IMG/VR virus record: IMGVR_UViG_3300021963_000049
Coordinates: 32,001-96,000 of that record
DNA from: a virus
DNA: 64,000 nucleotides
Reading direction: 5' to 3' (one strand)
The notes below the pieces were generated by a model. That model searched no databases and was not told the DNA's origin. It was given only the letters and a program-made list of their open reading frames with translations. Below, piece by piece: positions 29,878 through 54,293 of the stretch. Each line of letters begins with the position of its first letter. The first letter of the stretch is position 1. Position numbers and translations under genes: made by a program.

Positions 29878-30357
29878 CTATCCTCCAATAGAGAAATCTG
29901 CATTAGGCTGAATAGCTTTTGCTTTTGCACTTTGTGCTGCATAAGCATTGCGCAATTCATCTACATTATCATGCTTAATAAGCATATCTTCTGCATTACC
30001 AGCAAATGAGAACTTAGTTCTGCGGTAGATTGGAAGACCTCCAAGAGTACATACTACTCCTGTCTCACCAGCAATTTTAAGATCTCTCTCTGGAGTTTTG
30101 TTATTGAATGGCTCAAGAGCTTCTTCAATTACAATTTTACCATCAAGTTGTTGACCAGCATAGAATCCAGATTCTTTTAGCTCAGCTACAGTACCAGGAA
30201 TTAATGCTGACACAGGTTTTCTTCTTAAGAAACCATTATCATCTATAAGTGTTCTTACTTGTTGCACACGGATGAAACCATAATCTGAATTGTTTTCAGA
30301 TACATTAACAACAGCTCCAGTTGTTTCATCAGCTAATACAGTTACTTTTGAGTTCAT
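29878..30357 (-). CDS. Conserved crAss-like hypothetical protein
   Basis: 159-aa ORF (KIAGETGVVCTLGGLPIYRRT). Confidence 0.8.
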   Translation of the reverse strand: MNSKVTVLADETTGAVVNVSENNSDYGFIRVQQVRTLIDDNGFLRRKPVSALIPGTVAELKESGFYAGQQLDGKIVIEEALEPFNNKTPERDLKIAGETGVVCTLGGLPIYRRTKFSFAGNAEDMLIKHDNVDELRNAYAAQSAKAKAIQPNADFSIGG

Positions 30358-33937: not shown

Positions 33938-34123
33938 TTAATAAAATTCATAGAACTCCGGATACAGGTATTCTCCAAGTCCCATAAGAAGAGAAGACCT
34001 CTCTCCTTCTAATTCTTCTATAGTAGAATTATCAAGTTCTTCTAGTTGATCTTTAGACATCTCTTCCTGATTCAGTCTTAAGTACAGATCTTTGATCTCT
34101 TCAATCAGATTCTTTCCAATCAT
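33938..34123 (-). CDS. Small acidic protein
   Basis: 61 aa with an AT-rich leader. Confidence 0.7.
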   Translation of the reverse strand: MIGKNLIEEIKDLYLRLNQEEMSKDQLEELDNSTIEELEGERSSLLMGLGEYLYPEFYEFY

Positions 34124-34141
34124 AATCTTTGGTTTTAAAAT

Positions 34142-34324
34142 TTATAAATCTTCATTGTACACAAACTCATCTGTTTTAATCCAGTTGAGTATTTCTTCTT
34201 TGTAGGCATACTCTATAGTTATTTGATTAGTAATAACTGTGTAAGTAGTTCTGCCATCTACATTGTCCTGTGGAGTAACAACTCCTATCCATAAATAAAT
34301 CTGGAATATTAATTTGCTAAACAT
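34142..34324 (-). CDS. Small hypothetical protein
   Basis: 60 aa. Confidence 0.65.
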   Translation of the reverse strand: MFSKLIFQIYLWIGVVTPQDNVDGRTTYTVITNQITIEYAYKEEILNWIKTDEFVYNEDL

Positions 34325-34338
34325 ATTTCCCGGAGTCT

Positions 34339-34431
34339 TTAACTGTGAAACACTAAATGGATAATAGTAAGTATAGCAGTAATGCCTATAATAGCATATA
34401 CTAAGAGTAAGTCTTGCTTTTGTTTGTTCAT
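34339..34431 (-). CDS. Membrane micropeptide (30 aa)
   Basis: MNKQKQDLLLVYAIIGITAILTIIHLVFHS. Confidence 0.5.
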   Translation of the reverse strand: MNKQKQDLLLVYAIIGITAILTIIHLVFHS

Positions 34432-34583
34432 AGCTATATATTTAAGTTAATTGTGAGTGAATATTCTTATTCTGAGCCTGTTGTTAGAGTTTAGTTATAG
34501 TGGAGAGTTTGATTCTCTACTTTAAGTAAACACACTTAACTGTCTAGTTTCCAGCAACTTATAAGTTTATTTTTAAGTAATTT

Positions 34584-34796
34584 GTGGGAATACTAAGCTT
34601 CATTATATCATAGTATTACACATTACTTAAGCTTCTATGTCTTAAGTATTAAGTATTAAAGAGTAAGTATTTAGTATTAAGTATTAAGTACACAATTCCC
34701 ACTTGGTCAAAATTCACACCGGCAGAATAGTTACAAATTCCCACTTGGGTATATACTATACTATATATACTATACACATATTCCCACTTGGGTATG
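34584..34796. repeat. Iteron-like repeats plus AAGTATT tandem array (candidate replication origin)
   Basis: ATTCCCACTTGG at 34695, 34737 and 34780 (spacing 42/43); inverted GTGGGAAT at 34584; AAGTATT-type tandem at ~34644-34690. Confidence 0.6.
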
Positions 34797-34814
34797 TATT
34801 TAGTACTAATTACT

Positions 34815-34845
34815 AAAAAATAAAAAAGCAATGCTTTAGCATTGC
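34815..34845 (-). terminator. Intrinsic terminator
   Basis: GCAATGCT/AGCATTGC stem followed by a U-tract on the - strand. Confidence 0.65.
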
Positions 34846-34856
34846 AACTCAATTGC

Positions 34857-34869
34857 AGTAAAGGGTTAG
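34857..34869 (-). promoter_or_regulatory. Repeated 13-nt motif, copy 1 (CTAACCCWWNACT on - strand)
   Basis: + strand AGTAAAGGGTTAG. Confidence 0.6.
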
Positions 34870-34891
34870 AAAAAAGAGGAATCTAATTACT

Positions 34892-34922
34892 AAAAAAAAG
34901 AAATGGGGTTTATCCCCATTTC
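34892..34922 (-). terminator. Intrinsic terminator
   Basis: GAAATGGGG/CCCCATTTC stem with an 8-A run. Confidence 0.8.
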
Positions 34923-34929
34923 CTTATTA

Positions 34930-35367
34930 TTACATTTCTGTAATGTTTGCATCTGTTCCATCAGATACTGGTTCTGCAAATAATGCATTAACAGCCTTAT
35001 TGCTTGCAACTGGTCCCATAACTTTGTCAAGGACTCTTGATGCAAACTGAGCTTCCAATGCAGGAGATATTTTTGCAAGAGCATCAATCCTGCTTATATC
35101 CTTACGGCTCTCTGAGCCATCCAATGTATAATTACCATCTTGCTTCTTATACAATGGCAACTCATCTCTTAATGCATCCATATACATTGTTCTAAACTGC
35201 GGAGTTCCATCTGGTGCATTAGTTGGATACTTCTTGAATTGCGGGCTATTAATATAATCCTGCATTTCTTCAGCACTACCATACACATTATACAAATGGA
35301 AAGTTTGTCCTTTACCTGCTCCTTCTTTTCTTTGGATGTAATTTCCAACATAAACTGCTTTAATCAT
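34930..35367 (-). CDS. Putative early protein
   Basis: 145 aa in a motif-gene-terminator cassette. Confidence 0.8.
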   Translation of the reverse strand: MIKAVYVGNYIQRKEGAGKGQTFHLYNVYGSAEEMQDYINSPQFKKYPTNAPDGTPQFRTMYMDALRDELPLYKKQDGNYTLDGSESRKDISRIDALAKISPALEAQFASRVLDKVMGPVASNKAVNALFAEPVSDGTDANITEM

Positions 35368-35410
35368 AACTTTTGTTTTTAATTTATTAATAAATAATCA
35401 TATCAATTCC

Positions 35411-35423
35411 AGTGTAGGGTTAG
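35411..35423 (-). promoter_or_regulatory. Repeated 13-nt motif, copy 2
   Basis: + strand AGTGTAGGGTTAG. Confidence 0.65.
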
Positions 35424-35433
35424 TAAAAAGAGG

Positions 35434-35462
35434 AAAAAGAAAAAAGAGAGTTTATCTCTCTT
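35434..35462 (-). terminator. Intrinsic terminator
   Basis: AAGAGAG/CTCTCTT stem with A-run. Confidence 0.65.
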
Positions 35463-35685
35463 TTGGGATTGCAGATTTAAAAGCTTCCTGCATATCCATT
35501 TTATGTATAGCATCTATACATAGCTTATTTATATAACCTTTGGTATTTACTGCTTTTCCATACCATTCAGATTCAGCCTGCTTGGTTTCTTCTATTTCTG
35601 CTATTATGCTATTATACACATCTGCATATTCAGGATTTTGCCTCATTCTTTCCAGGCCATCTATTATATAAAATATCTTTCTCAT
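35452..35685 (-). CDS. Putative early protein
   Basis: 77 aa cassette gene. Confidence 0.75.
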   Translation of the reverse strand: MRKIFYIIDGLERMRQNPEYADVYNSIIAEIEETKQAESEWYGKAVNTKGYINKLCIDAIHKMDMQEAFKSAIPKER

Positions 35686-35709
35686 ATTATATAGTTTTAA
35701 TTTATATTA

Positions 35710-35722
35710 AGTTTAGGGTTAG
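35710..35722 (-). promoter_or_regulatory. Repeated 13-nt motif, copy 3
   Basis: + strand AGTTTAGGGTTAG. Confidence 0.65.
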
Positions 35723-35728
35723 TTAAAT

Positions 35729-35753
35729 AAAAAAAGAGAGCTTGTCTCTCTTT
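35729..35753 (-). terminator. Intrinsic terminator
   Basis: AAAGAGAG/CTCTCTTT stem with A-run. Confidence 0.65.
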
Positions 35754-35958
35754 ATTCTAGCCCTTTTCTGATTATATCTAAACATACTGCCCATGCATGA
35801 TATTCATTTTTATCAGATTCAAGTTCAGTGTTTATATACTCATGGGCAAGTTTATTTAGCATATGTTCTATATCTTTAACAAGTTTGCCATGTGTTACAT
35901 CTTTGTCCATAAGATTTAGAAATACTTTTTCTAAAACTTTTTTTTCTATTGCATCCAT
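35752..35958 (-). CDS. Putative early protein
   Basis: 68 aa cassette gene. Confidence 0.75.
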   Translation of the reverse strand: MDAIEKKVLEKVFLNLMDKDVTHGKLVKDIEHMLNKLAHEYINTELESDKNEYHAWAVCLDIIRKGLE

Positions 35959-35981
35959 ATTATAAATTTTAATTTATCATC

Positions 35982-35994
35982 AGTCTTGGGTTAG
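35982..35994 (-). promoter_or_regulatory. Repeated 13-nt motif, copy 4
   Basis: + strand AGTCTTGGGTTAG. Confidence 0.6.
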
Positions 35995-36008
35995 AAAGAA
36001 GAGGAAAG

Positions 36009-36048
36009 AAAAAAAGAAGAGTCATGACTATTTAGTCATGATCTCTTC
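36009..36048 (-). terminator. Intrinsic terminator
   Basis: GAAGAG-TCATGACTA/TAGTCATGA-CTCTTC stem with A-run. Confidence 0.75.
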
Positions 36049-36279
36049 GGCACCACAGATGAAGATGGCTTCATAGCCTGCTTCATTTGTGTAAAGCTTG
36101 TAGCTTATTTTATAAAGGCCTTCAGACTTTATATAATTAGCAACAGCTTTCTTACTGACTTTGGGAAGCCATAGCTTATCAGAGTCAGTATTGACTTTCT
36201 TTATATTATAAAGGAAGTCATGGGATTTGTTAGACATGATGCTCACCAGAGCATCTTGGAATGGCAAAGACTTTTTCAT
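36028..36279 (-). CDS. Putative early protein
   Basis: 83 aa, first gene of the - strand block. Confidence 0.75.
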   Translation of the reverse strand: MKKSLPFQDALVSIMSNKSHDFLYNIKKVNTDSDKLWLPKVSKKAVANYIKSEGLYKISYKLYTNEAGYEAIFICGAEEIMTK

Positions 36280-36303
36280 ATGATAAATTTTTAATTTATC
36301 TCA

Positions 36304-36316
36304 AGTTTAGGGTTAG
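36304..36316 (-). promoter_or_regulatory. Repeated 13-nt motif, copy 5
   Basis: + strand AGTTTAGGGTTAG. Confidence 0.65.
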
Positions 36317-36361
36317 TCAGCATGCAAGAGCAAGCAAGCTTTTTTTGACAGAGGAAAAAAA

Positions 36362-36460
36362 AGTGCAGCGCAGTTCTGCATGAGCAAGGCCACCTGAGAA
36401 AGCAGGGGGGTACCACCTGCGGCTTGAGGGGTGGGGGTGGCCGCGCTGGGGGATCCTCAC
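36362..36460. other. GC-rich, G-run island at the transcription divergence point
   Basis: GCAGGGGGGTACCACCTGC...GAGGGGTGGGGGTGGCCGCGCTGGGGG within an otherwise AT-rich genome. Confidence 0.6.
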
Positions 36461-36499
36461 AAACTCCAGTATAATATTTGGTTACTACCGGTAAAGTAT

Positions 36500-36563
36500 T
36501 ATATTTGTATTTCATTCTCTACCAAAATAAAAAGTCCCCGGAACTACAGGCTGGGGGTTTTTT
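36500..36563 (+). ncRNA. Promoter-sRNA-terminator unit U1
   Basis: TATATTTG, ~28 nt without an ORF, CCCCGG/CTGGGG hairpin and T6. Confidence 0.45.
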
Positions 36564-36576
36564 ATTATATTATAGT

Positions 36577-36759
36577 ATGAGGATTTATATTATAAAGTCC
36601 GGGAAAGAGTATGAGGCTAGCATATCAGACCCAGATCCAGATACACAACAGGTTATGTATTTGGTAGAGAAAATTGTAAGCATGATGAATCTGCCAAAGC
36701 AAGAGGTAGATGATTATATATTAGGATGGGCTGAAGAGATTAAACAAGTATTGAAATGA
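36577..36759 (+). CDS. Hypothetical protein (60 aa)
   Basis: ATG 36577 (MRIYIIKSGK); ATGA coupling to the next gene. Confidence 0.7.
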   Translation: MRIYIIKSGKEYEASISDPDPDTQQVMYLVEKIVSMMNLPKQEVDDYILGWAEEIKQVLK

Positions 36760-37199
36760 AGAAAGTAGATATGGGTAAGTATGTACTCCTTGCTGGTAAG
36801 GATGCAACAGAGATATTTGATTATTATGATGTACCTGAGATGCATGGTCTCAACCGTGATGATGCTCAGGCAGAAGAAGTAGATAAGACTTCTGGCAATG
36901 GAGTTTATATTTATGGTTGGACTAACTATGATCCAGCTGACAAGAAGCTTACAGCAAAGGCTCCTTACAAACCATTCTTGTTTATTAACCTTGGTACTTT
37001 TAAAAAGTATTCTCTTACAGAAAAAGCTACAGCTGTTATGCATGAAACTATGCATATGAGTTTGTTACTTAATAACTGGAACATCAAGGATAAAGAAGAA
37101 GAGGCAATTGGTTTTGCTGAAGAACAAGCTAATAAGATTATTGATATGCTAGGATTTGGTACTAAAGAACAACCTAAGAAAGGGTTCTTTAAAAAATAA
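36756..37199 (+). CDS. HExxH-containing putative metallopeptidase
   Basis: VMHETMH...EEEA. Confidence 0.6.
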   Translation: MKKVDMGKYVLLAGKDATEIFDYYDVPEMHGLNRDDAQAEEVDKTSGNGVYIYGWTNYDPADKKLTAKAPYKPFLFINLGTFKKYSLTEKATAVMHETMHMSLLLNNWNIKDKEEEAIGFAEEQANKIIDMLGFGTKEQPKKGFFKK

Positions 37200-37202
37200 T
37201 AT

Positions 37203-37835
37203 ATGGCACATATAGAACACAATTTTTTTCCTCTTAAAGTATTTGTTAGGAATGAGTACATGTACCAGAATAAGAAAGGTCAAGGTGAATTTACTCCAGG
37301 GGTAGTTATTTCAGTAAGATGCATGCCAGGGCAAGCTGCACTGTTTCAGGTACTCCTTGAGAATGGAGTACTTAGAGATAAGCTACCCTCACATGCGTTG
37401 CTTACTAAACCAGAGCTACCTAAACCGGATCTTCCTTTTCATCATCTGCAGATATGGAACTGTTTTTCTTATAATTTTACTGTGCTTCATTTATCATATC
37501 TTTATGATACCCCAGTAGAAGTGTATATGAAAGATAGAAAGTTTTACCCTGGTAAATATCATGCTACTATTAATTGGGGATCTAATGATCTTAACACAGA
37601 TTTATCTTTGGCTGAGGATGCTCTAGAGCATAAGTCTCACCATATTATATTATTAGATAATGGGCAGATTGCTCTACAACCTAACAATAGAATTAAATGG
37701 TCGGAGCCAAGTTTTGTTACTAAACCATTCCCTGAGAAACCAGATTATCTGGTTAATACAGATTATTATAACTGTGAAGGGTTTGATAAATGGCATACAG
37801 AAGATTCTGATAGAATGTTCTATGATACTGAATAA
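37203..37835 (+). CDS. Conserved phage protein
   Basis: LQIWNCFSY...EHKSHHIILLDNGQIALQPNNRI pattern. Confidence 0.8.
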   Translation: MAHIEHNFFPLKVFVRNEYMYQNKKGQGEFTPGVVISVRCMPGQAALFQVLLENGVLRDKLPSHALLTKPELPKPDLPFHHLQIWNCFSYNFTVLHLSYLYDTPVEVYMKDRKFYPGKYHATINWGSNDLNTDLSLAEDALEHKSHHIILLDNGQIALQPNNRIKWSEPSFVTKPFPEKPDYLVNTDYYNCEGFDKWHTEDSDRMFYDTE

Positions 37836-37842
37836 TACCCCA

Positions 37843-38023
37843 CCAGTATGTAAATACTGGGACCTCATGGTGATACTGTTGCCATGATATATGTACCAGA
37901 CAGCATACCGTAAGATCTGCTCACTACACTGGTCTTTTTGGTTACTGGGAAAGCAGAGATCTGTATAACTAGTAACAACCCCAGATAAGTTTCTTTGGCC
38001 AAGAAGTACTATCTGGGTTTTTT
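37843..38023 (+). ncRNA. Five-hairpin structured RNA ending in a terminator
   Basis: CCAGTAT-GTAA-ATACTGG (GNRA loop), TCATGGTGA/TTGCCATGA, ACCAG/CTGGT, GTTACTGG/CTAGTAAC, CCCAGATA/TATCTGGG plus T6. Confidence 0.6.
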
Positions 38024-38025
38024 AT

Positions 38026-38127
38026 TATATTTGCTTTGTAATGTTCAAGTATTTAAATTTAGAGTATTTAGATTTAGACATTAATTTTGACGAAGCTGAA
38101 AGCCCTAGATATTTTTCTAGGGTTTTT
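38026..38127 (+). ncRNA. Promoter-sRNA-terminator unit U2
   Basis: TATATTTG, ~65 nt, CCCTAGA/TCTAGGG hairpin and T5. Confidence 0.45.
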
Positions 38128-38148
38128 AGTTTAAACAAAAAAAGTTTT

Positions 38149-38156
38149 TATATTTG
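38149..38156 (+). promoter_or_regulatory. Bacteroidota-type -7 element (TATATTTG)
   Basis: 18 nt upstream of ATG 38175. Confidence 0.6.
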
Positions 38157-38174
38157 CTAACCAACAAATTGTGT

Positions 38175-38369
38175 ATGAGTGAGAAGACAGTTCTGCATAT
38201 TACCATAGATGAAGATGATAACATCAAAGTGGATGTAAATGTAAAGGAGTTTGATATACTAGCTCTTGTAGGTTTAATGGAGCAAATTAAACTTGATATA
38301 TTTAAAGAGAATCTCCCATTGACAAAGGAGATAATTACTAAACTTCCAAATAATAACTATGATGCATAA
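38175..38369 (+). CDS. Hypothetical protein
   Basis: MSEKTVLHITIDEDD...; ATG preferred over upstream TTG. Confidence 0.7.
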   Translation: MSEKTVLHITIDEDDNIKVDVNVKEFDILALVGLMEQIKLDIFKENLPLTKEIITKLPNNNYDA

Positions 38370-38613
38370 GTATGTAAAAAAGCCTGTGGTTATAGAGGCT
38401 ATGCAATGGACTGGAGATAATACAAAAGAAGTTTTAGAATTTTGCCCGGACTGTTTTACTTATGAAAGAAATAATAAAGATGTATTTGTAGTATCTACAT
38501 TAGAAGGTAATATGAATGCATCTCTAAATGATTATATCATCAAAGGTATCAAGTCTGAGTTCTATGCTTGTAAGCCAGATGTGTTTAATCTCACATATGA
38601 TAAAGTAGATTAA
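38359..38613 (+). CDS. Conserved phage protein (KKPVVIEA...YxCKPDxF family)
   Basis: Recognisable widespread phage family: STLEG.M.AS..DYIIKG..EFYACKPDVF. Confidence 0.8.
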   Translation: MMHKYVKKPVVIEAMQWTGDNTKEVLEFCPDCFTYERNNKDVFVVSTLEGNMNASLNDYIIKGIKSEFYACKPDVFNLTYDKVD

Positions 38614-38614
38614 G

Positions 38615-38983
38615 GTGACAAAGCAAGAGTTGGACATATGGAGAGCTGTGACCAATTTCACTAAGGGCCAGGAAGGAGCCAACTTAAAAGCAAGAGAATT
38701 ATATGAACAATTAAAAACCAACAATATGGAAAATAAAGATGCAGTAGTTATAGAAGAAAAAATCTTTTCATTTGGAGAGATTCTAGTAGGTATAGAATTT
38801 AATCCATCTAATGATGAGAAAGTATTTCAAGTAAAACAAAAGTTTGCAGAGATAGCTAATCTATTAAAGGATGAGTATAATAATAGTGCTAAGTCTCCTG
38901 TAAAGAGTTTGGTATTTGATCATGCAATAGGTGAAATCCTAAATGCTCAAATGTCAGTAGTTAAATTAATAACAATGAAGTAA
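38615..38983 (+). CDS. Helical-hairpin protein, possible Acb2/Tad1-like nucleotide sponge (alternative start 38726)
   Basis: FGEILVGIEFNPS...VKQKFAEIA...AIGEILNAQMSVVK; resemblance judged by eye only. Confidence 0.5.
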   Translation: MTKQELDIWRAVTNFTKGQEGANLKARELYEQLKTNNMENKDAVVIEEKIFSFGEILVGIEFNPSNDEKVFQVKQKFAEIANLLKDEYNNSAKSPVKSLVFDHAIGEILNAQMSVVKLITMK

Positions 38984-39258
38984 TGGTAGTAAGAGGAAAA
39001 AGGTTACTGGTTACAGTACCAGAATTAAAAAAGACATCTGTTGAGTTATCAGCTAAGGATGAAGAAATGAGAATGCAAGATGCAATCAAGCTGTGGACAA
39101 AACTAGAAGTATTTGCAGTAGGTAATGAAGTAGAGGGAATTAACCCGGGAGATAAAGTGTATATCCAAACATATGCATTAGAATCTGCAGAAAGAATTGA
39201 AGTAGATGGAGTAATAAAATTATTAATTCCAGACCAGGCTGTTGCAATTATATATTAG
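38983..39258 (+). CDS. GroES/Cpn10-like co-chaperonin
   Basis: RGKRLLV...EVFAVGNEV..INPGDKV...IEVDG..LLI pattern, 91 aa. Confidence 0.75.
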   Translation: MVVRGKRLLVTVPELKKTSVELSAKDEEMRMQDAIKLWTKLEVFAVGNEVEGINPGDKVYIQTYALESAERIEVDGVIKLLIPDQAVAIIY

Positions 39259-39340
39259 TATATTTGTATCTGCTTTAAGTTCATAATAATAGTTAGATGG
39301 TAAAAGTTCTCAGGTCATATTTGGTCTGAGAATTTTTTTT
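39259..39340 (+). ncRNA. Promoter-sRNA-terminator unit U3
   Basis: TATATTTG, ~40 nt, TTCTCAGGTCA/TGGTCTGAGAA hairpin and T8. Confidence 0.55.
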
Positions 39341-39419
39341 ATATTTGTATATCCAAGCAAACAAGCAATAGTGATAGGTAAGAAGATCCTCAGATTTATT
39401 TCTGGGGATTTTGTTTTTT
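39340..39419 (+). ncRNA. Promoter-sRNA-terminator unit U4
   Basis: TATATTTG, ~38 nt, ATCCTCAGA/TCTGGGGAT hairpin and T-tract. Confidence 0.5.
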
Positions 39420-39464
39420 AAAATATTTTACTTATATTAAGTATGTAATATATTATTTGTAATC

Positions 39465-40145
39465 ATGGATATTCTAAATTTTTTAAACTTAAGAACGCAG
39501 CGTCTAGTAAAGACAACTGCTAATAATCCTGAAACAGACTTAATAGTGCTAGGCGCAGATGTAGGTTTTCAGAAAAGAGATGATAGGTACCAAACCTATG
39601 CTATGCCTTTGGCAGATGCAGTAAAGGCTGGATCTATTGCTAATAACACTTTTGAAACTACTACTTATGATATATTTCCATTTGTAATAACTCCTTTTAT
39701 AAATAAGTCAGACTATGCAATAATTGACACAAATACAGGAAGTACATTGCAAGCATGGACTATACAAGGTACTATTCTTTTAACTGGATATAATAGTTAT
39801 GCAGAGCCTCTTGGAACTATAGTAATAGAAGGAGGAGCATCATCAGATATTCAAAACTGGAAAACAAGTGGTGCAGTTTCATTTGATAGTTTCTTACCAG
39901 GTGTAACTGAGTCACAACCATTAGGATTAATAAACTTATTAGAGGACAGTGTGGGTGGTGCTGATTATGCACAGATTTCAATAGGTCAATTCCCAACAGT
40001 AGTAGGTGCAAATCTTGAGATTGATGTAGTTATGTTTGTTGGATCTTGTCCAATAACAGCTGGTCCTGCTGGTACTTTTGAAGGTGAGGTTTCTTTTCAA
40101 ATAGAATTTTTAGCAGATGCTAATTATAATGTTACACTTAACTAA
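39465..40145 (+). CDS. Structural protein (fibre/decoration-like), paralog 1
   Basis: Shares the N-terminal ~55 aa with 40291-40860; beta-rich C-terminus. Confidence 0.7.
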   Translation: MDILNFLNLRTQRLVKTTANNPETDLIVLGADVGFQKRDDRYQTYAMPLADAVKAGSIANNTFETTTYDIFPFVITPFINKSDYAIIDTNTGSTLQAWTIQGTILLTGYNSYAEPLGTIVIEGGASSDIQNWKTSGAVSFDSFLPGVTESQPLGLINLLEDSVGGADYAQISIGQFPTVVGANLEIDVVMFVGSCPITAGPAGTFEGEVSFQIEFLADANYNVTLN

Positions 40146-40159
40146 ATAAACTTAGAGTC

Positions 40160-40288
40160 ATGGCAAAGAAGAAAACAGCAAATCCAAAAGTTTTAGAAAA
40201 ACAGGCTAAATTTAATAAATTAAGAAAGCAACCTTCAGAAAGAGTTGCTGCTTTAATAGCACAGTATAATGCGCAAAAAAATAGATAA
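40160..40288 (+). CDS. Small basic protein (42 aa)
   Basis: Read by hand: MAKKKTANPKVLEKQAKFNKLRKQPSERVAALIAQYNAQKNR. Confidence 0.65.
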   Translation: MAKKKTANPKVLEKQAKFNKLRKQPSERVAALIAQYNAQKNR

Positions 40289-40290
40289 TC

Positions 40291-40860
40291 ATGGATATTT
40301 TAAATTGGCTCTATATAAAAAAAGAGCAGTTAATAAGAACAAAAGCTAATAATCCTGACACGGACTTAGTAGCACTTGGTGCTAATGTAGGTTTTAATAA
40401 GAGAGATGATCAATATCAAACTTATGCAATGCCACTTAAAGATCTTGTTCAAGCTGGTAATGAAGGTAATACTAAACATTATGAGTTAGATATGACTGTA
40501 ACAAATACAGTTACAGTAGATACTCCAAGAGGTATTATTGATATTACTGGAATGGGTACTGCACCTTTTTTAACTCCTGATCCAGCATTTGCTTTTCAAA
40601 CACCTTTTTATATTAATAATCCAGATCTAGATCTTACAGTAGCTAATAGAGATAATGTATATTTACAGTACTCTGTATATTATGCATTTGCTCCTACAGA
40701 TGACAATGCTATTCCATATCTTATTTCTACAGGATTTATAATTCCAAATGGTGTAGGATTTAATCTATATAATGCTAATCCAGCAGCTGCACCTGTTGCA
40801 CCAAACAACCAATGGACCGGAGCCTTGTATGTTTACTATGAACTTTATACAATTAACTAA
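40291..40860 (+). CDS. Structural protein (fibre/decoration-like), paralog 2
   Basis: MDILN...ANNP.TDL..LGA.VGF.KRDD.YQTYAMPL shared with paralog 1. Confidence 0.7.
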   Translation: MDILNWLYIKKEQLIRTKANNPDTDLVALGANVGFNKRDDQYQTYAMPLKDLVQAGNEGNTKHYELDMTVTNTVTVDTPRGIIDITGMGTAPFLTPDPAFAFQTPFYINNPDLDLTVANRDNVYLQYSVYYAFAPTDDNAIPYLISTGFIIPNGVGFNLYNANPAAAPVAPNNQWTGALYVYYELYTIN

Positions 40861-40862
40861 TT

Positions 40863-41243
40863 ATGTCAGTAGGAAATTTAAAAGACTATGGTAACAAAGG
40901 AAATAATTTTCCTTTCCAGCTTAAAGTATTAGAAGGATTACAGGCTATTCTAGATGGTAACTGTTGTGAAGATATACTTCTTGCACTAGCTGATATAGAT
41001 ACTAAATTAAAGTCAAATCCCAGAACTCCAAAAATTATATCTAGTTCAACAACTGGAGCAACAATAGCTGGCTGGTATAGTTTTTCTATAGCAAATGTAG
41101 GAGCTGCAGCAGGACTTGTAGATGGAGTTTCAATTCCTGCAGGAACTACTCTTAACTTTGATGCTGGAGTATTAAACAATACACTTGGAAGTTTACCATA
41201 TGATGCAACAGGTACTACATTTATTATTACATATGTAGCTTAA
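40863..41243 (+). CDS. Structural protein (MSVGNLKD.GNKGNNFP.QLK family)
   Basis: 126 aa, G/T/A-rich, in the tail module. Confidence 0.7.
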   Translation: MSVGNLKDYGNKGNNFPFQLKVLEGLQAILDGNCCEDILLALADIDTKLKSNPRTPKIISSSTTGATIAGWYSFSIANVGAAAGLVDGVSIPAGTTLNFDAGVLNNTLGSLPYDATGTTFIITYVA

Positions 41244-41800
41244 TGAGTACAACTATTTATCTTAATTCTTCTTTTGTACCAGTTACAATTAATTATGGAT
41301 TATTTGCTCAAACAGCAAACAGTATCCCTATTACAAATACTACTGTAGAAACATCTTTAATAAATGGAGGTGTAGGTACACTATCAGTTCCTGCTAATGG
41401 ATTTAAAGTAGGAGATAGCTTTAGAGCAGTAATTGCTGGAGTATTAAATGTTACTAATAATCAAACTATACAAATAAGAGTAAAGGATGGAACTTCAATA
41501 CTAGTAGATAGTGGACCTAAATCTATCTCAAATATTACAGGAGATATCTTTTCTCTAAATATAGACTTTACTATAAGGCAGTTAGGAGCAGCTGGTGTAG
41601 CATCTATTGTAACTTTAGGCACCTTTCATTATACTAAAACATCAAACGGTGTCAATGAAGGTTTTGCATTTAATGCAGTCAATAACACCACATTTGATAC
41701 TACAATAAGTAATACATTAGATGTAACTGTACAATGGGGAGCTGCTAATCCAGGTAATAGTATATATAGTGATATATTTGTTTTAAATAAGATATATTAA
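41243..41800 (+). CDS. Tail-associated beta-rich protein
   Basis: 185 aa, T/N/G-rich. Confidence 0.65.
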   Translation: MSTTIYLNSSFVPVTINYGLFAQTANSIPITNTTVETSLINGGVGTLSVPANGFKVGDSFRAVIAGVLNVTNNQTIQIRVKDGTSILVDSGPKSISNITGDIFSLNIDFTIRQLGAAGVASIVTLGTFHYTKTSNGVNEGFAFNAVNNTTFDTTISNTLDVTVQWGAANPGNSIYSDIFVLNKIY

Positions 41801-42390
41801 TGAGTACTAGAATAGAATTAAAATCACAATCTACACCACCTGTTGGAGCTACATTAATGAAGACAGGTCAAACTATATCCACTAATACTGGGGATGATGG
41901 TGCTACACAGAGAGGAAGACTGTTAGACTTTTTAACATTAAATAGTAATAATCCATTTGGAAATACTAATAGATTTACAGATAAATCTGGTAATCAAACA
42001 TATACTAATTCAGTAGCTTTTGACTGGTCTACATATGATGGTTCTACAGTACTTGCTTATTATTATGGTGATAATACAACTAGACCTTGGGCAGATCAAC
42101 TTACTCAACATACAGGAGCTACATTTGATGGTTTAACAGGATGGTATTTAACCAACTTTGTTGAAATGATTAATATCATGAACTTTGGATTAATGGCTAA
42201 CTACCAATTAAACTACGCCCCTTTTAATACAACAAGAAGATATTTTTGGATATCAACTCAAGTAACTGGAACTGGTGGATGTCTTACTGATTTAGCTGGT
42301 GTAAACCCATTTACTCAAACAGGTAAACAAAATGCTTTTTGGGGTATTTGGGTAAGAGTATGTAATGTTTCAGGAACAACAATAACTTAA
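41800..42390 (+). CDS. Tail/receptor-binding protein (Lcl/DUF1566-like C-terminus possible)
   Basis: LMKTGQT...GDDG, NPFGNTNRFTD, GWYLTNFVEM and YFWIST motifs. Confidence 0.6.
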   Translation: MSTRIELKSQSTPPVGATLMKTGQTISTNTGDDGATQRGRLLDFLTLNSNNPFGNTNRFTDKSGNQTYTNSVAFDWSTYDGSTVLAYYYGDNTTRPWADQLTQHTGATFDGLTGWYLTNFVEMINIMNFGLMANYQLNYAPFNTTRRYFWISTQVTGTGGCLTDLAGVNPFTQTGKQNAFWGIWVRVCNVSGTTIT

Positions 42391-42400
42391 AATATAAATT

Positions 42401-42637
42401 ATGCCAACATATGCATTTCCACAATTTGATGTAGAGATAGTTGACCCTACAGTTACTATTGATATGAATACTATATCTGATAAAGCAATAGATAAGCTTT
42501 TAGCTGTAAATGTTTTACTTACTACAGATACAGCTAAGTTTGGAGTAAGATTAGAAGATATGCCTTATAATCCATCTTGGGAAGATTCAGATGTACCAGG
42601 AATGGTAGATTTAAAACTGCAAGAATATATTGTATAA
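42401..42637 (+). CDS. Small tail-associated protein
   Basis: 78 aa following the putative receptor-binding gene. Confidence 0.65.
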   Translation: MPTYAFPQFDVEIVDPTVTIDMNTISDKAIDKLLAVNVLLTTDTAKFGVRLEDMPYNPSWEDSDVPGMVDLKLQEYIV

Positions 42638-42937
42638 ATGGCTTATATAAATGTACAAGGAACTACTGCAGGTACTCAGATAATATATGAAGCACCTGAA
42701 GAAATTACATCTTGTATAGTTGTATATATTAGACTTAACAATCCTAATGCATACACTATAACATTATCTAGGTATGAGGCATCAACCGCATCAACAGTAA
42801 ATTTATATACAAATACATTAGCTGCCGGAGATAGTGTAATTGATACAACTACATATGTATTATATCCTGGGGATAAAATAATTTTAACTACTACATCTCC
42901 TGGAACTGTATATTTAGCATTAATAAGTAGTTTATGA
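42638..42937 (+). CDS. Structural protein
   Basis: 99 aa, YVLYPGDKI beta-sandwich-like pattern. Confidence 0.65.
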   Translation: MAYINVQGTTAGTQIIYEAPEEITSCIVVYIRLNNPNAYTITLSRYEASTASTVNLYTNTLAAGDSVIDTTTYVLYPGDKIILTTTSPGTVYLALISSL

Positions 42938-44529
42938 AACAATTAGTTGATGCAAATGGTAATATATTTGGCACATCTACAGTCCAAATTATAGGTTCAG
43001 ATGGCAAACCTAAAACAACAGGTGGATCTGGAGGTACACCATCAGGCCCGGCAGGAGGAGACTTATCTGGTACATATCCTAATCCAGCGGTAATATGGAC
43101 AAATGGTTTACCTACATATAATTTATCTTATTATCCATTAGCATCAAATCCAGCAGGATACTTAACATCATTAGCATTATCACCATATTTAACAATTACT
43201 TCTGCAGCATCAACATATTTACCAATTGGTGGTGGATCAATGACAGGTTTTTTAACATTAAATGCAGATCCTACTTCTTCCTTACATGCTGCTACAAAAC
43301 AATATGTAGATAACTTGTCAGGTGGTATTAACTTTCACGCACCTGTGCACGCAGCCACTACAGCTAATTTATCAGCTACATATTCAAATGGAGTATCTGG
43401 TGTAGGAGCAACATTAATAGCTACATTAAATGGAGCCATAGTAGTTGATACTCATACCTTAGCTGCTGGAGAAAGAGTATTAGTATGGCAACAATCTGCC
43501 GGATTAGAAAATGGTATCTATGATGTTACCAATACAGGATCACCATCTACACCATTTATACTTACTAGATCAGCTGATGCAGATAACTCACCTACAGGAG
43601 AATTACAAAATGGAGACTTTTGTTTTGTACAACAAGGAGCAACATATGGTGGATTTGGTTTTATACTAAATACAACGGGAACTATAACTGTAGGAACAAC
43701 AGCAATTAATTATGTACAGTTTAACGCTGCACAAGCAGTAGCTGCTGGATATGGTTTACAGGAGTTATCTCCAAATATACTTTCAGTAGATACCTCTTTA
43801 ATTGCAACTATTACTAGCTTAGGATCATATCTTACAACAGCATCTGCTGCAGCAACTTATTATCCTCTAACAAATCCTGCAGGGTATACATCTAACACAG
43901 GTACAGTAACTTCTATAGCTACGTCAGCTCCTATTACAGGAGGAACTATTACTGGATCAGGCACTATTGGTATAACACAGGCAACAACATCAACAGATGG
44001 GTATCTGTCTTCAACTGACTGGAATACATTTAATAATAAACAAAATAGTCTAACAGCTGGGTATGGTATTACTGGCATTCCAACTCCTGCAGTATCATTA
44101 ACATCAACTCAAGTATTTGCTACAGCAACAACTTCCATAAATGCAGCTACATATATAGATATAACTGGATGTAGTGTATCATTAGCCGCAGGGACATGGT
44201 TAATAACAGGTTTTGTAGTTGGAGCAGCAGCTAACTTAATTATACAATGTTTTGTTGCAATTAGAGATGGATCAAATAATGTTATTGCTGCAGCAGCAAT
44301 GTCAAGACCTGCCTCTGGTACAGCATCATTAAACTCCCCAATTTCAGTATCTTGGTCAGCACTTGTTACACCAGCAGCAACTACAACGTATAAGCTAAGT
44401 GCAGCTAGAGGATTAACAACACATACTTCAACTTGGACTGTGTATGATGGAACAGGTTATAATACTTCCAACCATGCTACAGATAACTCTGACAAAGGCA
44501 CTAATATATTAGCAATAAGAATTGCCTAA
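42934..44529 (+). CDS. Tail fibre protein
   Basis: 531 aa. AGGDLSGTYPNP, YYPL.SNPAGY repeats, LHAATKQYVD, ENGIY...LTRSADAD, GTVTSI and DGYLSSTDWNTFNNKQ fibre motifs. Confidence 0.85.
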   Translation: MKQLVDANGNIFGTSTVQIIGSDGKPKTTGGSGGTPSGPAGGDLSGTYPNPAVIWTNGLPTYNLSYYPLASNPAGYLTSLALSPYLTITSAASTYLPIGGGSMTGFLTLNADPTSSLHAATKQYVDNLSGGINFHAPVHAATTANLSATYSNGVSGVGATLIATLNGAIVVDTHTLAAGERVLVWQQSAGLENGIYDVTNTGSPSTPFILTRSADADNSPTGELQNGDFCFVQQGATYGGFGFILNTTGTITVGTTAINYVQFNAAQAVAAGYGLQELSPNILSVDTSLIATITSLGSYLTTASAAATYYPLTNPAGYTSNTGTVTSIATSAPITGGTITGSGTIGITQATTSTDGYLSSTDWNTFNNKQNSLTAGYGITGIPTPAVSLTSTQVFATATTSINAATYIDITGCSVSLAAGTWLITGFVVGAAANLIIQCFVAIRDGSNNVIAAAAMSRPASGTASLNSPISVSWSALVTPAATTTYKLSAARGLTTHTSTWTVYDGTGYNTSNHATDNSDKGTNILAIRIA

Positions 44530-54205: not shown

Positions 54206-54293
54206 TTAGCTATATAATGCAAAAAAAGATTGCAGCCTATCTAAATTTCTGAAGTTTATTTTGTATATTAAAGTATAAACAAAAACCAACAAA

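Follow-up and report, generated by a model that had tools for sequence, protein, structure and literature searches.

Background

To our knowledge, nearly all phages in which small RNAs (sRNAs) have been described infect Proteobacteria or, in a few cases, Firmicutes. In lambda, transcripts of the late operon terminate in the leader, giving the 6S RNA that runs from PR' to tR', and termination is relieved by Q; this RNA is the model for an attenuator considered below. Type I 3'-UTR sRNAs such as MicL and DapZ, which are Hfq-dependent enterobacterial regulators with proven targets, have their own promoter and share the terminator of the mRNA.

The promoter-early stem-loop (PeSL) cassettes of T4-type phages are described by Arbiol et al. 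2010 (PMC2839356) and Comeau et al. 2014 (PMC4122927) as small composites that join a strong host-type promoter to a terminator stem-loop. According to these descriptions they are repeated in variable regions between small accessory genes, are conserved across otherwise diverged genomes and are linked to gain, loss and replacement of the flanked genes. In one subclass the stem-loop is downstream of the promoter (PMC2839356). The canonical intergenic sRNAs of Bacteroides are defined by a start site and an intrinsic terminator in the account of Ryan et al. 2020 (PMC7366714), where the conserved single-stranded 5' seed of GibS acts on translation initiation regions. A 2025 review (PMC12197685) includes the OOP RNA and the 6S RNA of lambda among phage sRNAs with their own promoter and terminator; the word stems 'Bacteroid' and 'Flavobacter' do not occur in it. 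According to a 2024 review (PMC10884466), what non-coding RNAs do in lytic phages has yet to be worked out.

Features of the four units

The window is the whole stretch of viral DNA that was analysed, 64,000 nucleotides long. The sequence-only reading had described four units in it, each with a promoter box, a short body and a hairpin followed by a U-tract, and all four were confirmed. The box TATATTTG is exact on the + strand at 36500, 38026, 39259 and 39340, and the terminator hairpins are compact, with a U-tract and a dG between -14.7 and -16.6. All units are located in a mosaic, variable block of small genes just right of a strand switch. The features of this block are:

36500..36566, + strand: U1, with box 36500-36507, a body of about 20 nt and terminator hairpin 36526-36566 (dG -15.5, z -2.75)
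36565..36579, + strand: second promoter-like motif TTATATTATAGTAT, one mismatch from GTATATTATAGTAT, ending in the ATG of g1 (36577-36759)
37836..38024, + strand: structured non-coding RNA, about 190 nt long, with terminator 37980-38017 at its end
38026..38127, + strand: U2, with box 38026-38033, a body of 65 nt and terminator 38099-38126 (dG -14.7, z -4.97)
38127..38156, + strand: conserved linker and second box (TAGTTTAAACAAAAAAAGTTTT and TATATTTG), predicted to drive g4 (ATG at 38175)
39259..39342, + strand: U3, with box 39259-39266 right behind the g7 stop codon and terminator 39297-39342 (dG -16.6, z -3.01)
39340..39419, + strand: U4, with box 39340-39347, a body of 35 nt and terminator 39383-39412 with U-tract (dG -15.1, z -2.92)
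39432..39467, + strand: TTATATTAAGTAT motif, non-canonical ATTATTTG word and ATG of g8 (39465), compared with L044 and L069

U1 is the first rightward promoter past the strand switch and has a TTTG at 36477-36480, 19 nt 5' of its box. U2 stands alone between an upstream terminator and a downstream promoter; its body contains GTTCAAG (38043-38049), which is not GTTCAT, and an internal repeat. The body of U3 contains GTTCATAAT at 39279-39287, and its terminator doubles as the first one behind the g4-g7 operon. The tandem arrangement that had been noted for U3 and U4 is correct, the U-tract of U3 overlapping the box of U4. The copies within this genome have little in common beyond the 8-nt box and the T-run. 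A separate terminator scan listed the terminators of U3 and U4 only. The predicted RNA folds have a single-stranded 5' part and the terminator hairpin (z -2.75 to -4.97), with an additional 5' hairpin in U2.

The statement that no ORF fits inside a unit was nearly right. A 39-aa ORF (38041-38160) begins in U2 and extends 33 nt beyond the U-tract, and further ORFs that overlap U1 and U2 have TTG starts or antisense starts; no unit-overlapping ORF is conserved in the units of related phages. The presence of CAT in three of the four units carries no weight on its own, since CAT is within 30 nt of the box in 35/60 distinct units and also at 89/206 other TAnnTTTG sites.

The box is overrepresented in the window: it occurs 20 times on the two strands together, where 8.5 copies are expected, and 20 or more copies occurred in 0/100 shuffles. 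Twelve gene starts have a box within 80 nt upstream, eleven of them at 13-39 nt and the twelfth at 69 nt. The gene g1 has its own promoter-like motif, TTATATTATAGTAT, and can therefore do without the U1 box; motifs of this type are also found 3' of terminators and 5' of genes in relatives. The region 39432..39467 is likely the promoter region of the next block. The gene after g8, at 40291, has a weak match to a head protein, and no such match was found for g8.

The structured RNA lies behind the g3 stop codon and has no box of its own in the window; 7/9 relatives have a TAnnTTTG box in front of it. Its alignment (A2, RNAalifold) has 47 pairs, 22 of them with compensatory changes, and an Rfam search gave no match. 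A box-to-terminator unit that holds an RNA with 22 covarying pairs is a precedent at this locus.

Comparison with described systems

The units share with PeSL cassettes the traits summarised above. Terminator-box pairs occur within an intergenic space of about 100 bp at 37980/38026, 38099/38149 and 39297/39340, and the units are concentrated in a hyperplastic mosaic block, where they flank variable small genes. However, the promoters are of the TAnnTTTG type here and of the sigma-70 -35/-10 type in PeSL, and the phage lineage differs as well. Moreover, no gene separates the complete promoter here from the terminator that it faces, and the gene-less interval is conserved as a family headed by GTTCAT. 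Since PeSL cassettes belong to T4-type phages with sigma-70 promoters, and this genome has TAnnTTTG boxes and head, portal and terminase proteins that match non-T4 PHROGs, the units resemble PeSL in their working but are not members of it.

U1-U4 have the predicted attributes of Bacteroidota sRNAs, namely a sigma-ABfr-type promoter (TAnnTTTG at -7) and a Rho-independent 3' terminator. They share with GibS-type sRNAs, as these are described in PMC7366714, the promoter type, the intrinsic terminator, a low G+C content and a largely unstructured 5' part. The units differ in being phage-borne and predicted from sequence, in having a much shorter body and in a conservation that is limited to a 6-nt head.

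The OOP and 6S RNAs of lambda, as covered in the review (PMC12197685), are short phage transcripts, each delimited by a constitutive promoter and an intrinsic terminator close to it, which is what is predicted here. OOP is cis-antisense to cII, whereas the units have no gene on the opposite strand. In position only, the U4 box and terminator are like PR'-tR', the U-tract ending about 45 nt before g8; a Q-like factor was not found by family searches of 10 neighbouring proteins. As in MicL and DapZ, the boxes of U3 and of the U2-type units of relatives open a transcript that would end at the first terminator of the upstream operon. They are directly behind the stop codon, after the coding sequence, whereas the promoters of MicL and DapZ are inside it.

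Units in related phages

A search of relatives for the same architecture with variable middles, which the sequence-only reading had proposed, was positive. The flanking gene g3 is shared by 449 contigs. Its protein is 89-93% identical in relatives, whose neighbouring genes are missing, reordered or 30-60% identical. Dozens of relatives carry homologous units at syntenic and non-syntenic sites. Across the loci of 80 relatives, the + strand has 98 box-to-terminator units that lie outside ORFs, and the - strand has 25. The RNA of the + strand is favoured in 44/47 distinct hairpins (mean dG -15.8 vs -9.9), a comparison that is biased because the set was selected on the + strand. Another TAnnTTTG follows 38/60 distinct units, so those units are not needed for the expression of the next gene. 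In two complete or nearly complete relatives, a clean intergenic TATATTTG with a strong compact hairpin occurs only at the start of the rightward block, which is also its place in the window, and the few intergenic units elsewhere are weaker or have a TAnnTTTG variant.

L035, L038 and L044 also have the hairpin type of U1 (CCCCGG..CTGGGG), with a TATATTAT-type motif and an ATG behind it; the terminator of U1 is probably the one resident at the site in relatives, where the box is missing. A copy of U3 was not found by blastn in the loci of the 80 relatives. The U4-type terminator is right behind the upstream gene, with no box 5' of it, in 7/7 relatives examined, and is followed by a TATATTAT-type motif (TATATTAAGTAT variant in L044) and an ATG. 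The gene that starts there begins like g8 in 3/7, and the terminator of L044 is 95% identical to that of U4. By this comparison, the terminator of U4 is the one resident at the site in relatives.

U2-type modules have a fixed order: a box, GTTCAT 3-5 nt further on, a variable body, a hairpin, a conserved linker, a second box and a gene. They are found behind g3 and behind other genes. In 15 hand-picked units (13 from relatives, U2 and U3), the box and the GTTCAT-like word stand out against the variable body, and by inspection GTTCAT is present in 10 of the 13 and in U3. GTTCAT is within 30 nt of the box in 12/60 distinct units and 0/206 other TAnnTTTG sites, counts that are not independent. 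The 30-nt linker occurs in 29 distinct contexts behind at least four kinds of gene. A box and a hairpin precede it in 22 of these contexts, with GTTCAT in 14 and TTTCAT in 5 by inspection. Linker and box form an exact 30-mer in 43 viral contigs with differing upstream genes.

The identity of linker and second box between genomes is 0.62-0.97, and about 0.8-0.9 where the linker variant of the window is shared; g3 third codon positions are about 0.6 identical in this comparison. The identity of the body is 0.48-0.66 against 0.57-0.70 for g3 third positions, and 0.78-0.84 against 0.90-0.94. By these values the body is evolving about as fast as g3 third positions or faster, and apart from GTTCAT it looks to be under little constraint. 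Since many relatives have a gene promoter directly behind g3 with no unit, and the GTTCAT unit is absent from 3/5 searched records, the units are dispensable.

Pairing with start regions

The sequence-only reading had also proposed that the RNAs are antisense to start codons and block translation initiation. Phage start regions pair with the units no better than with shuffles, or marginally better, which for phage targets is the outcome that reading had named as counting against its own proposal. Against 123 phage start regions and dinucleotide shuffles, the values were 0.83 for U2, 0.20 for U3 and 0.47 for U4, and the best real site of U1 was -12.0 against a shuffle mean of -11.6. A second run with 40 shuffles gave 0.05 for G002 and for U3, and 0.72 for G004. 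Matched unit-target pairs had a mean of -12.6 and mismatched pairs -10.3, with n=5 and two matched pairs being the weakest of their rows. It is our guess that a GUUCAU 5' end could pair with AUGAAC-type start regions, which the pairing tests do not support. Of the proposal of stand-alone units read by the host RNA polymerase (RNAP), the box of the Bacteroidota -7 type, the intrinsic terminator and the lack of a conserved ORF support the stand-alone part, and the antisense role is unsupported for phage targets.

The sole recurring candidate target is a 159-aa gene with the start ATGAAC at 30357, a top match in two genomes. The gene starts with ATGACA in two unit-bearing loci, was not found in one unit-bearing genome (90% complete) and is present in one genome without a GTTCAT unit.

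Interpretation

Since related phages have similar units, the units probably make short RNAs. A look-up of RNA sequencing runs for 9 kb around the units gave none. Our preferred reading, which we hold tentatively, is that the four are short gene-less transcription units of the host RNAP, built from promoter and terminator pieces that the lineage shuffles between accessory genes. They are best read as short non-coding transcription units riding on PeSL-like cassettes, and we infer that early in infection a discrete transcript of about 50-95 nt would come from each. U2 and U3 would be a conserved module type that travels as one piece behind differing genes, its second box driving the next gene. 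In this reading both are true sRNA genes, which either share a terminator or bring one along, much as 3'-UTR sRNAs with a promoter of their own do. The simplest view of U4 is that its box is the 3' promoter of an inserted U3 module and would fire into a pre-existing terminator; U1 is the first rightward promoter, and the terminator ahead of it is of a type also present in relatives. U1 and U4 may be by-products or attenuated leaders.

That box-like words and terminators met by chance in crowded, AT-rich intergenic DNA, where both signals concentrate, is hardly credible. A hairpin is present within 120 nt 3' of 4/13 + strand TATATTTG copies in the genome, and the + strand has 17 hairpins with dG <= -14.3 (counted from the hairpin list). 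Random placement gives 13 x 17 x 121 / 116688 = ~0.2 box-hairpin pairs; within 3 kb there are four exact 8-mers, each with a hairpin of dG <= -14.7. With a lenient cut-off (dG <= -10), hairpins of dG -10.0 to -13.1 also turn up behind 4/12 - strand copies, and three of the four cases are inside crude gene calls; only hairpin strength and intergenic position distinguish the four units from these. Words like the U3 head do arise randomly, as 23 matches elsewhere, at most one with a terminator behind it, indicate. However, the TAnnTTTG box is 5-118 nt upstream of 57/210 distinct strong terminators, and composition-matched control words are 2-5 times rarer there (reversed word 20, reverse complement 11, last-base variants A, T and C 30, 31 and 12). 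The homologous units at syntenic and non-syntenic sites in relatives are also not expected from chance. It is possible, if doubtful, that the units are purely architectural PeSL-like cassettes, in which terminators insulate, promoters restart transcription and conserved stretches recombine, gene-less intervals being empty cassettes or scars and the RNA a functionless by-product. The highly mosaic surroundings of g3, the linker and second box being much better conserved than a body of about neutral divergence, and the resident U4 terminator with no upstream box all agree with this. Close relatives differ in the presence of a unit, L034 having the linker and box alone, and the same logic operates in T4-like phages according to the PeSL papers (PMC2839356, PMC4122927), which include the subclass with a stem-loop after the -10 box. 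Recombination of flanking cassettes, however, would be expected to produce one composite cassette, whereas here promoters face terminators at a distance of 20-65 nt, and this arrangement recurs across many diverged genomes. GTTCAT at a fixed distance from the box is also restricted to gene-less units, and an adjoining element with this architecture contains a structured RNA that is clearly under selection.

It is unlikely that the units are promoter-proximal attenuators, whose hairpins would halt transcripts until a factor or a polymerase change permits read-through and would time g1, g4-g7 and the virion block from g8. U1 ends 11 nt 5' of the g1 ATG, and the U4 U-tract precedes the ATG of g8, the first gene of the following block; neither interval has a canonical box. 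But g1 and g8 each have a second promoter-like motif, another canonical box is behind most distinct units, and g8-like genes of relatives are expressed from a terminator and motif arranged in the same way, with no upstream box. L015, L016, L018, L034 and L036 have a box and a conserved-loop hairpin 16-21 nt before the g2 ATG. No other recognisable promoter precedes g2 there, and therefore the well-conserved g2-g3 pair would depend on read-through; a tandem of box, terminator and box also recurs 5' of g2 in relatives. In all, about six units of relatives are at this distance from a gene that has no other recognisable promoter, and these look arranged as leaders and not as sRNA genes. No antiterminator was hinted at by PHROGs and Pfam searches of the small neighbouring genes (10 proteins), and the predicted folds contain the terminator and no alternative antiterminator fold.

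Going beyond the preferred reading of short non-coding transcription units, the GTTCAT-headed units might be mobile sRNA genes of a large set of uncultured phages, whose hosts are probably Bacteroidota. The GUUCAU(A) at the transcript start would pair with AUGAAC or AUGAA starts of host or phage mRNAs that lack a Shine-Dalgarno sequence, and a fast body would tune the targets. Together with the structured RNA they would make up, where the rightward block begins, a locus for RNA-based take-over. We consider this a long shot. Should the units prove both transcribed and functional, a modular set of RNA genes would be present in hundreds of uncultured relatives, PeSL-like shuffling would extend beyond T4-like phages to another promoter type, and compact, portable promoter-terminator parts would be available for Bacteroidota. 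If they are by-products only, they still document how the lineage wires and shuffles its accessory genes.

Host and phage lineage

A Shine-Dalgarno-like word is present at 1/123 gene starts. The leaders are A-rich, with A enriched at -13 to -10 and at -3, which matches the Bacteroidota leader signature quoted in PMC7366714. The genome therefore probably fits a Bacteroidota host. The label crAss-like is unconfirmed: the major head protein matched nine phage records, none of them crAss-like and none T4-like. Its best named relative is a cyanophage, at 28% identity.

Structure of the four units

The region contains four gene-less promoter-to-terminator units on the + strand: U1 (36500-36566), U2 (38026-38127), U3 (39259-39342) and U4 (39340-39419). 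Each starts with TATATTTG, an exact version of the Bacteroidota -7 promoter element TAnnTTTG (the box), at 36500, 38026, 39259 and 39340, and each continues to a hairpin and U-tract, as the sequence-only reading had described. The terminators and a larger RNA beside U2 are as follows.

Terminators and structured RNA of the unit region
36526-36566, + strand, U1 terminator hairpin, compact, with U-tract
37836-38024, + strand, structured non-coding RNA of about 190 nt, from the stop of gene g3 to U2, with its own terminator at the end
38099-38126, + strand, U2 terminator hairpin, compact, with U-tract
39297-39342, + strand, U3 terminator hairpin, compact, with U-tract
39383-39412, + strand, U4 terminator hairpin, compact, with U-tract

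The hairpins of U1-U4 have a dG of -14.7 to -16.6, and the predicted RNA folds consist of a free 5' part and the terminator (z-scores of -2.75 to -4.97). A hairpin of this strength follows 4 of the 13 + strand copies of TATATTTG in the whole record, namely U1-U4. If the 17 comparable hairpins were placed randomly, about 0.2 box-hairpin pairs would be expected by our own arithmetic. At a lenient energy cut-off a hairpin also follows 4 of the 12 copies on the - strand, three of the four lying inside crude gene calls; therefore, it is the hairpin strength and the intergenic position that bear the argument. The observation is confirmed as more than chance. A sigma-70 promoter scan was uninformative (55 sites vs 50.1 expected).

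The claim that no ORF fits inside a unit is close to correct. A 39-aa ORF begins in U2, but it overruns the U2 terminator and is unconserved in the units of relatives. A small-peptide reading was rejected: the unit of one related locus (L057) has a 21-codon frame, read by eye, but the frame shrinks to 3 codons in L046, and L086 lacks it. An antisense small ORF from the complement of GTTCAT was also rejected, at 9 codons in the window. Only a tRNA-Arg reached its Rfam gathering score; at E <= 5 there were five weak matches over 36000-39600, all scoring far under their gathering thresholds and all outside the units. No RNA run was found for window positions 34000-43000. Kissing of the U2 5' hairpin loop with the terminator loop gave only A/U matches by eye.

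Genome setting

The virus record is 116,688 bp with a completeness rating of 99%, and the window covers its bases 32001-96000. The strand switches at about 36300, with - strand genes to the left and + strand genes to the right, and U1-U4 together with the small genes g1 to g7 (36577-39258) fall within 3 kb of the start of the rightward block. The next gene, g8 (39465), opens a run of genes that continues to those for terminase, portal and head proteins, recognisable from 49 kb on. A G-run-rich island of 51% G+C (36300-36470) lies exactly where the strand changes. The related locus L015 has one like it in the corresponding place, with GGGGGGTACCCACC-like runs, and blastn matches of about 69% to the island were seen in L015, L018 and L036.

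A Shine-Dalgarno-like word occurs at 1 of the 123 gene starts of the whole record (crude gene calls), and A is enriched before these starts at -13 to -10 (0.54-0.69) and at -3 (0.59). A signature of this kind is quoted for the phylum Bacteroidota in the part of PMC7366714 available. The gene-start signature fits a Bacteroidota host. Many - strand genes of the record share the start context TTAAAA..ATTATGA. Among named relatives of the head protein, a Leptolyngbya phage ranks first (28% identity) and Cellulophaga phages come next, with partial matches; the nine matches include no crAss-like record. A blastn search of 36000-40000 against named phages gave unrelated phages only, at 2-3% coverage.

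Recurrence in related viruses

The gene g3 (37203-37835) encodes 210 aa. Its protein is shared at 89-93% identity by the best 80 of 449 related viral contigs, in which the neighbours of g3 are mosaic and vary widely. More distant homologues (about 40% identity) are found in cyanophages, pelagiphages and four Flavobacterium phages, where the labels are PurM or ferredoxin. The best 80 of the 449 contigs sharing g3 were used as loci for the comparison. Recurrence of the architecture in relatives, named beforehand as a check, was found: outside ORFs, these loci have 98 box-to-terminator units on the + strand vs 25 on the - strand. Stricter rules leave 60 distinct units, after 38 of which there is another canonical box. 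Among 210 distinct strong terminators from the relatives and the virus's own genome, 57 are preceded at 5-118 nt by a TAnnTTTG box, whereas control words gave 20 (reversed), 11 (reverse complement) and 30, 31 and 12 (last base changed to A, T or C). Two relatives, complete or nearly so, have clean intergenic units of TATATTTG and a strong compact hairpin at the start of the rightward block only, with a few weaker or TAnnTTTG-variant intergenic cases at other places.

Many relatives carry a module directly behind the g3 stop with a fixed order: TATATTTG, GTTCAT or TTTCAT starting 3-5 nt past the box, a variable A/T-rich body in which TTGATT is often present, a hairpin of the type CCCTGG..CCGGGG, a linker TAGTTTAAACAAAAAAAGTTTT, a second TATATTTG and the next gene. 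The exact 30 nt of linker and box was found in 43 viral contigs. A box and hairpin are present in 22 of the 29 distinct contexts upstream of this 30-nt sequence, with GTTCAT in 14 and TTTCAT in 5 of the 22 as read by eye. The gene in front of the module may be g3, g2 or at least two others, so the module moves as a whole. In the window, U3 has GTTCATAAT 12 nt past its box and U2 has GTTCAAG. No copy of U3 was found by blastn in the 80 loci; a U3-head pattern matched 23 times in viral contigs, with a terminator in at most one case, and these matches were judged to be chance.

Pairing with start codons

The sequence-only reading proposed that the units are antisense sRNAs that block start codons and pointed to CAT near the box. 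CAT is indeed present, but it is unremarkable, since it occurs in 35 of the 60 distinct units vs 89 of 206 other TAnnTTTG sites. Pairing of the unit bodies to 123 phage start regions (RNAduplex) was compared with dinucleotide shuffles, and the fraction of shuffles as good was 0.83 for U2, 0.20 for U3 and 0.47 for U4. For U1 the best real site scored -12.0 vs a shuffle mean of -11.6; its top match, the start of a - strand ORF at 36515, was rejected, this ORF overlapping U1 itself.

When the test was repeated with 40 shuffles, the fractions were 0.05 for U3 and 0.05 and 0.72 for units of two whole related records (G002 and G004, respectively). In this run U3 and the G002 unit shared one top match, a 157-159-aa gene starting ATGAACTCAAAAGT, the window's version of which is the gene at 30357 (protein MNSKV...). 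This gene was followed into 20 loci and three whole records. It starts with ATGGAC in one unit-bearing locus and ATGACA in two, was not found in the unit-bearing, 90%-complete G004, and is present in G001, another whole record, where the GTTCAT unit is absent. The mean pairing was -12.6 for matched unit-target combinations vs -10.3 for mismatched ones, on five rows only. The candidate was dropped as inconsistent across genomes. The tests, which covered phage start regions, give no support to the antisense-to-start-codon mechanism.

The first 15 nt at the start of this 159-aa - strand gene (30343-30357) are ATGAACTCAAAAGTA, the reverse complement of which is TACTTTTG followed by AGTTCAT, a box-like word with a unit-type head. 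The arrangement is conserved in relatives (loci L171-L181) and may be a coincidence.

Possible nature of the units

The favoured reading, still tentative, is that these are putative short non-coding transcription units on cassettes like the promoter-early stem-loop (PeSL) cassettes of T4-type phages, in which promoter and terminator pieces are shuffled according to the available parts of PMC2839356 and PMC4122927. On this reading the likeliest genuine RNA genes are U2 and U3; U4 would be a by-product or a leader, and perhaps U1 too. The phage lineage and the promoter type differ, so the units are not members of the PeSL family. A somewhat less likely alternative is that they are cassettes and nothing more. 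The module body as a whole shows no conservation: its identity is 0.48-0.66 vs 0.57-0.70 at g3 third codon positions, and in the closest trio 0.78-0.84, below the 0.90-0.94 of those positions. The linker and second box are conserved far above the body among genomes with the window's linker variant (identity about 0.8-0.9; 0.62-0.97 over all pairs). On the other side, 12 of the 60 distinct units have GTTCAT close to the box vs 0 of 206 other TAnnTTTG sites, although these counts are related by descent. The RNA at 37836-38024 has compensatory changes in 22 of 47 predicted pairs (10 sequences, the window and nine relatives), and its family has a size of about 190-250 nt, four helices and a terminator whose loop, CTGATCAA, is conserved; it has no Rfam match. 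Seven of the nine relatives have a TAnnTTTG box of its own on this RNA. A selected RNA can thus be housed in box-to-terminator units of this lineage, which raises the odds for an sRNA reading of the small units.

The units could also be attenuators, which seems unlikely. In five loci (L015, L016, L018, L034 and L036) the g2 ATG is preceded at 16-21 nt by a box and hairpin, no further promoter being recognisable there, and this arrangement is leader-like. Gene-less units share the anatomy by which Ryan et al. define canonical Bacteroides intergenic sRNAs, in the accessible text of PMC7366714, where GibS offers a pattern for a 5' seed. Among phages, the classic parallels are lambda OOP and the 6S RNA from PR' to tR' (2025 review, PMC12197685). 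A term search of this review found neither of the word stems 'Bacteroid' and 'Flavobacter'. The literature search, in the text open to it, found no description of sRNAs of Bacteroidota phages.

The hairpin of units upstream of g2 has a covarying stem (GGTCTGG/CCCAGACC vs ACCCGG/CCGGGT) and a constant loop, GAG(G/T)TGAAAGC, in L015-L018, L034, L036, L050, L053, L061, L066, L077 and L088. This combination is unusual in a plain terminator and may indicate a protein-binding RNA. Several genes have a TAnnTTTG box just 4-5 nt before the ATG (G001, G002, G004 and loci such as L017, L041 and L069), which implies leaderless or nearly leaderless mRNAs.

Proposed origin of U4 and setting of U1

In all seven relatives examined, a U4-type terminator stands directly behind the upstream gene with no box ahead of it, followed by a motif like GTATATTATAGT (TATATTAAGTAT variant in L044) and an ATG; the gene after it starts like g8 in three of the seven. 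The L044 terminator is 95% identical to that of U4. In the simplest history, a U3-type module (box, GTTCAT body, terminator and second box) would have been inserted between the g7 stop and the resident U4 terminator, and its second box (39340) would now fire into that terminator as U4. U1 is the first rightward box, with TTTG 19 nt upstream of it. The terminator type that it faces recurs with a TATATTAT-type motif in L035, L038 and L044, and the start of g1 (36577) is apparently supplied by the motif TTATATTATAGTATG after U1.

A second conserved promoter-like motif, GTATATTATAGTAT, occurs at 36565-36578, 39432-39444 and 54263-54276, and in relatives such as L043, L069, L070 and L080. When up to 3 mismatches are allowed, the window shows no enrichment of it (33 matches vs 27 expected). 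It lies behind terminators and 0-30 nt ahead of gene starts, those of g8-like genes in relatives among them. It could be a middle or late promoter specific to the phage, or else a variant of the -7 element for leaderless mRNAs.
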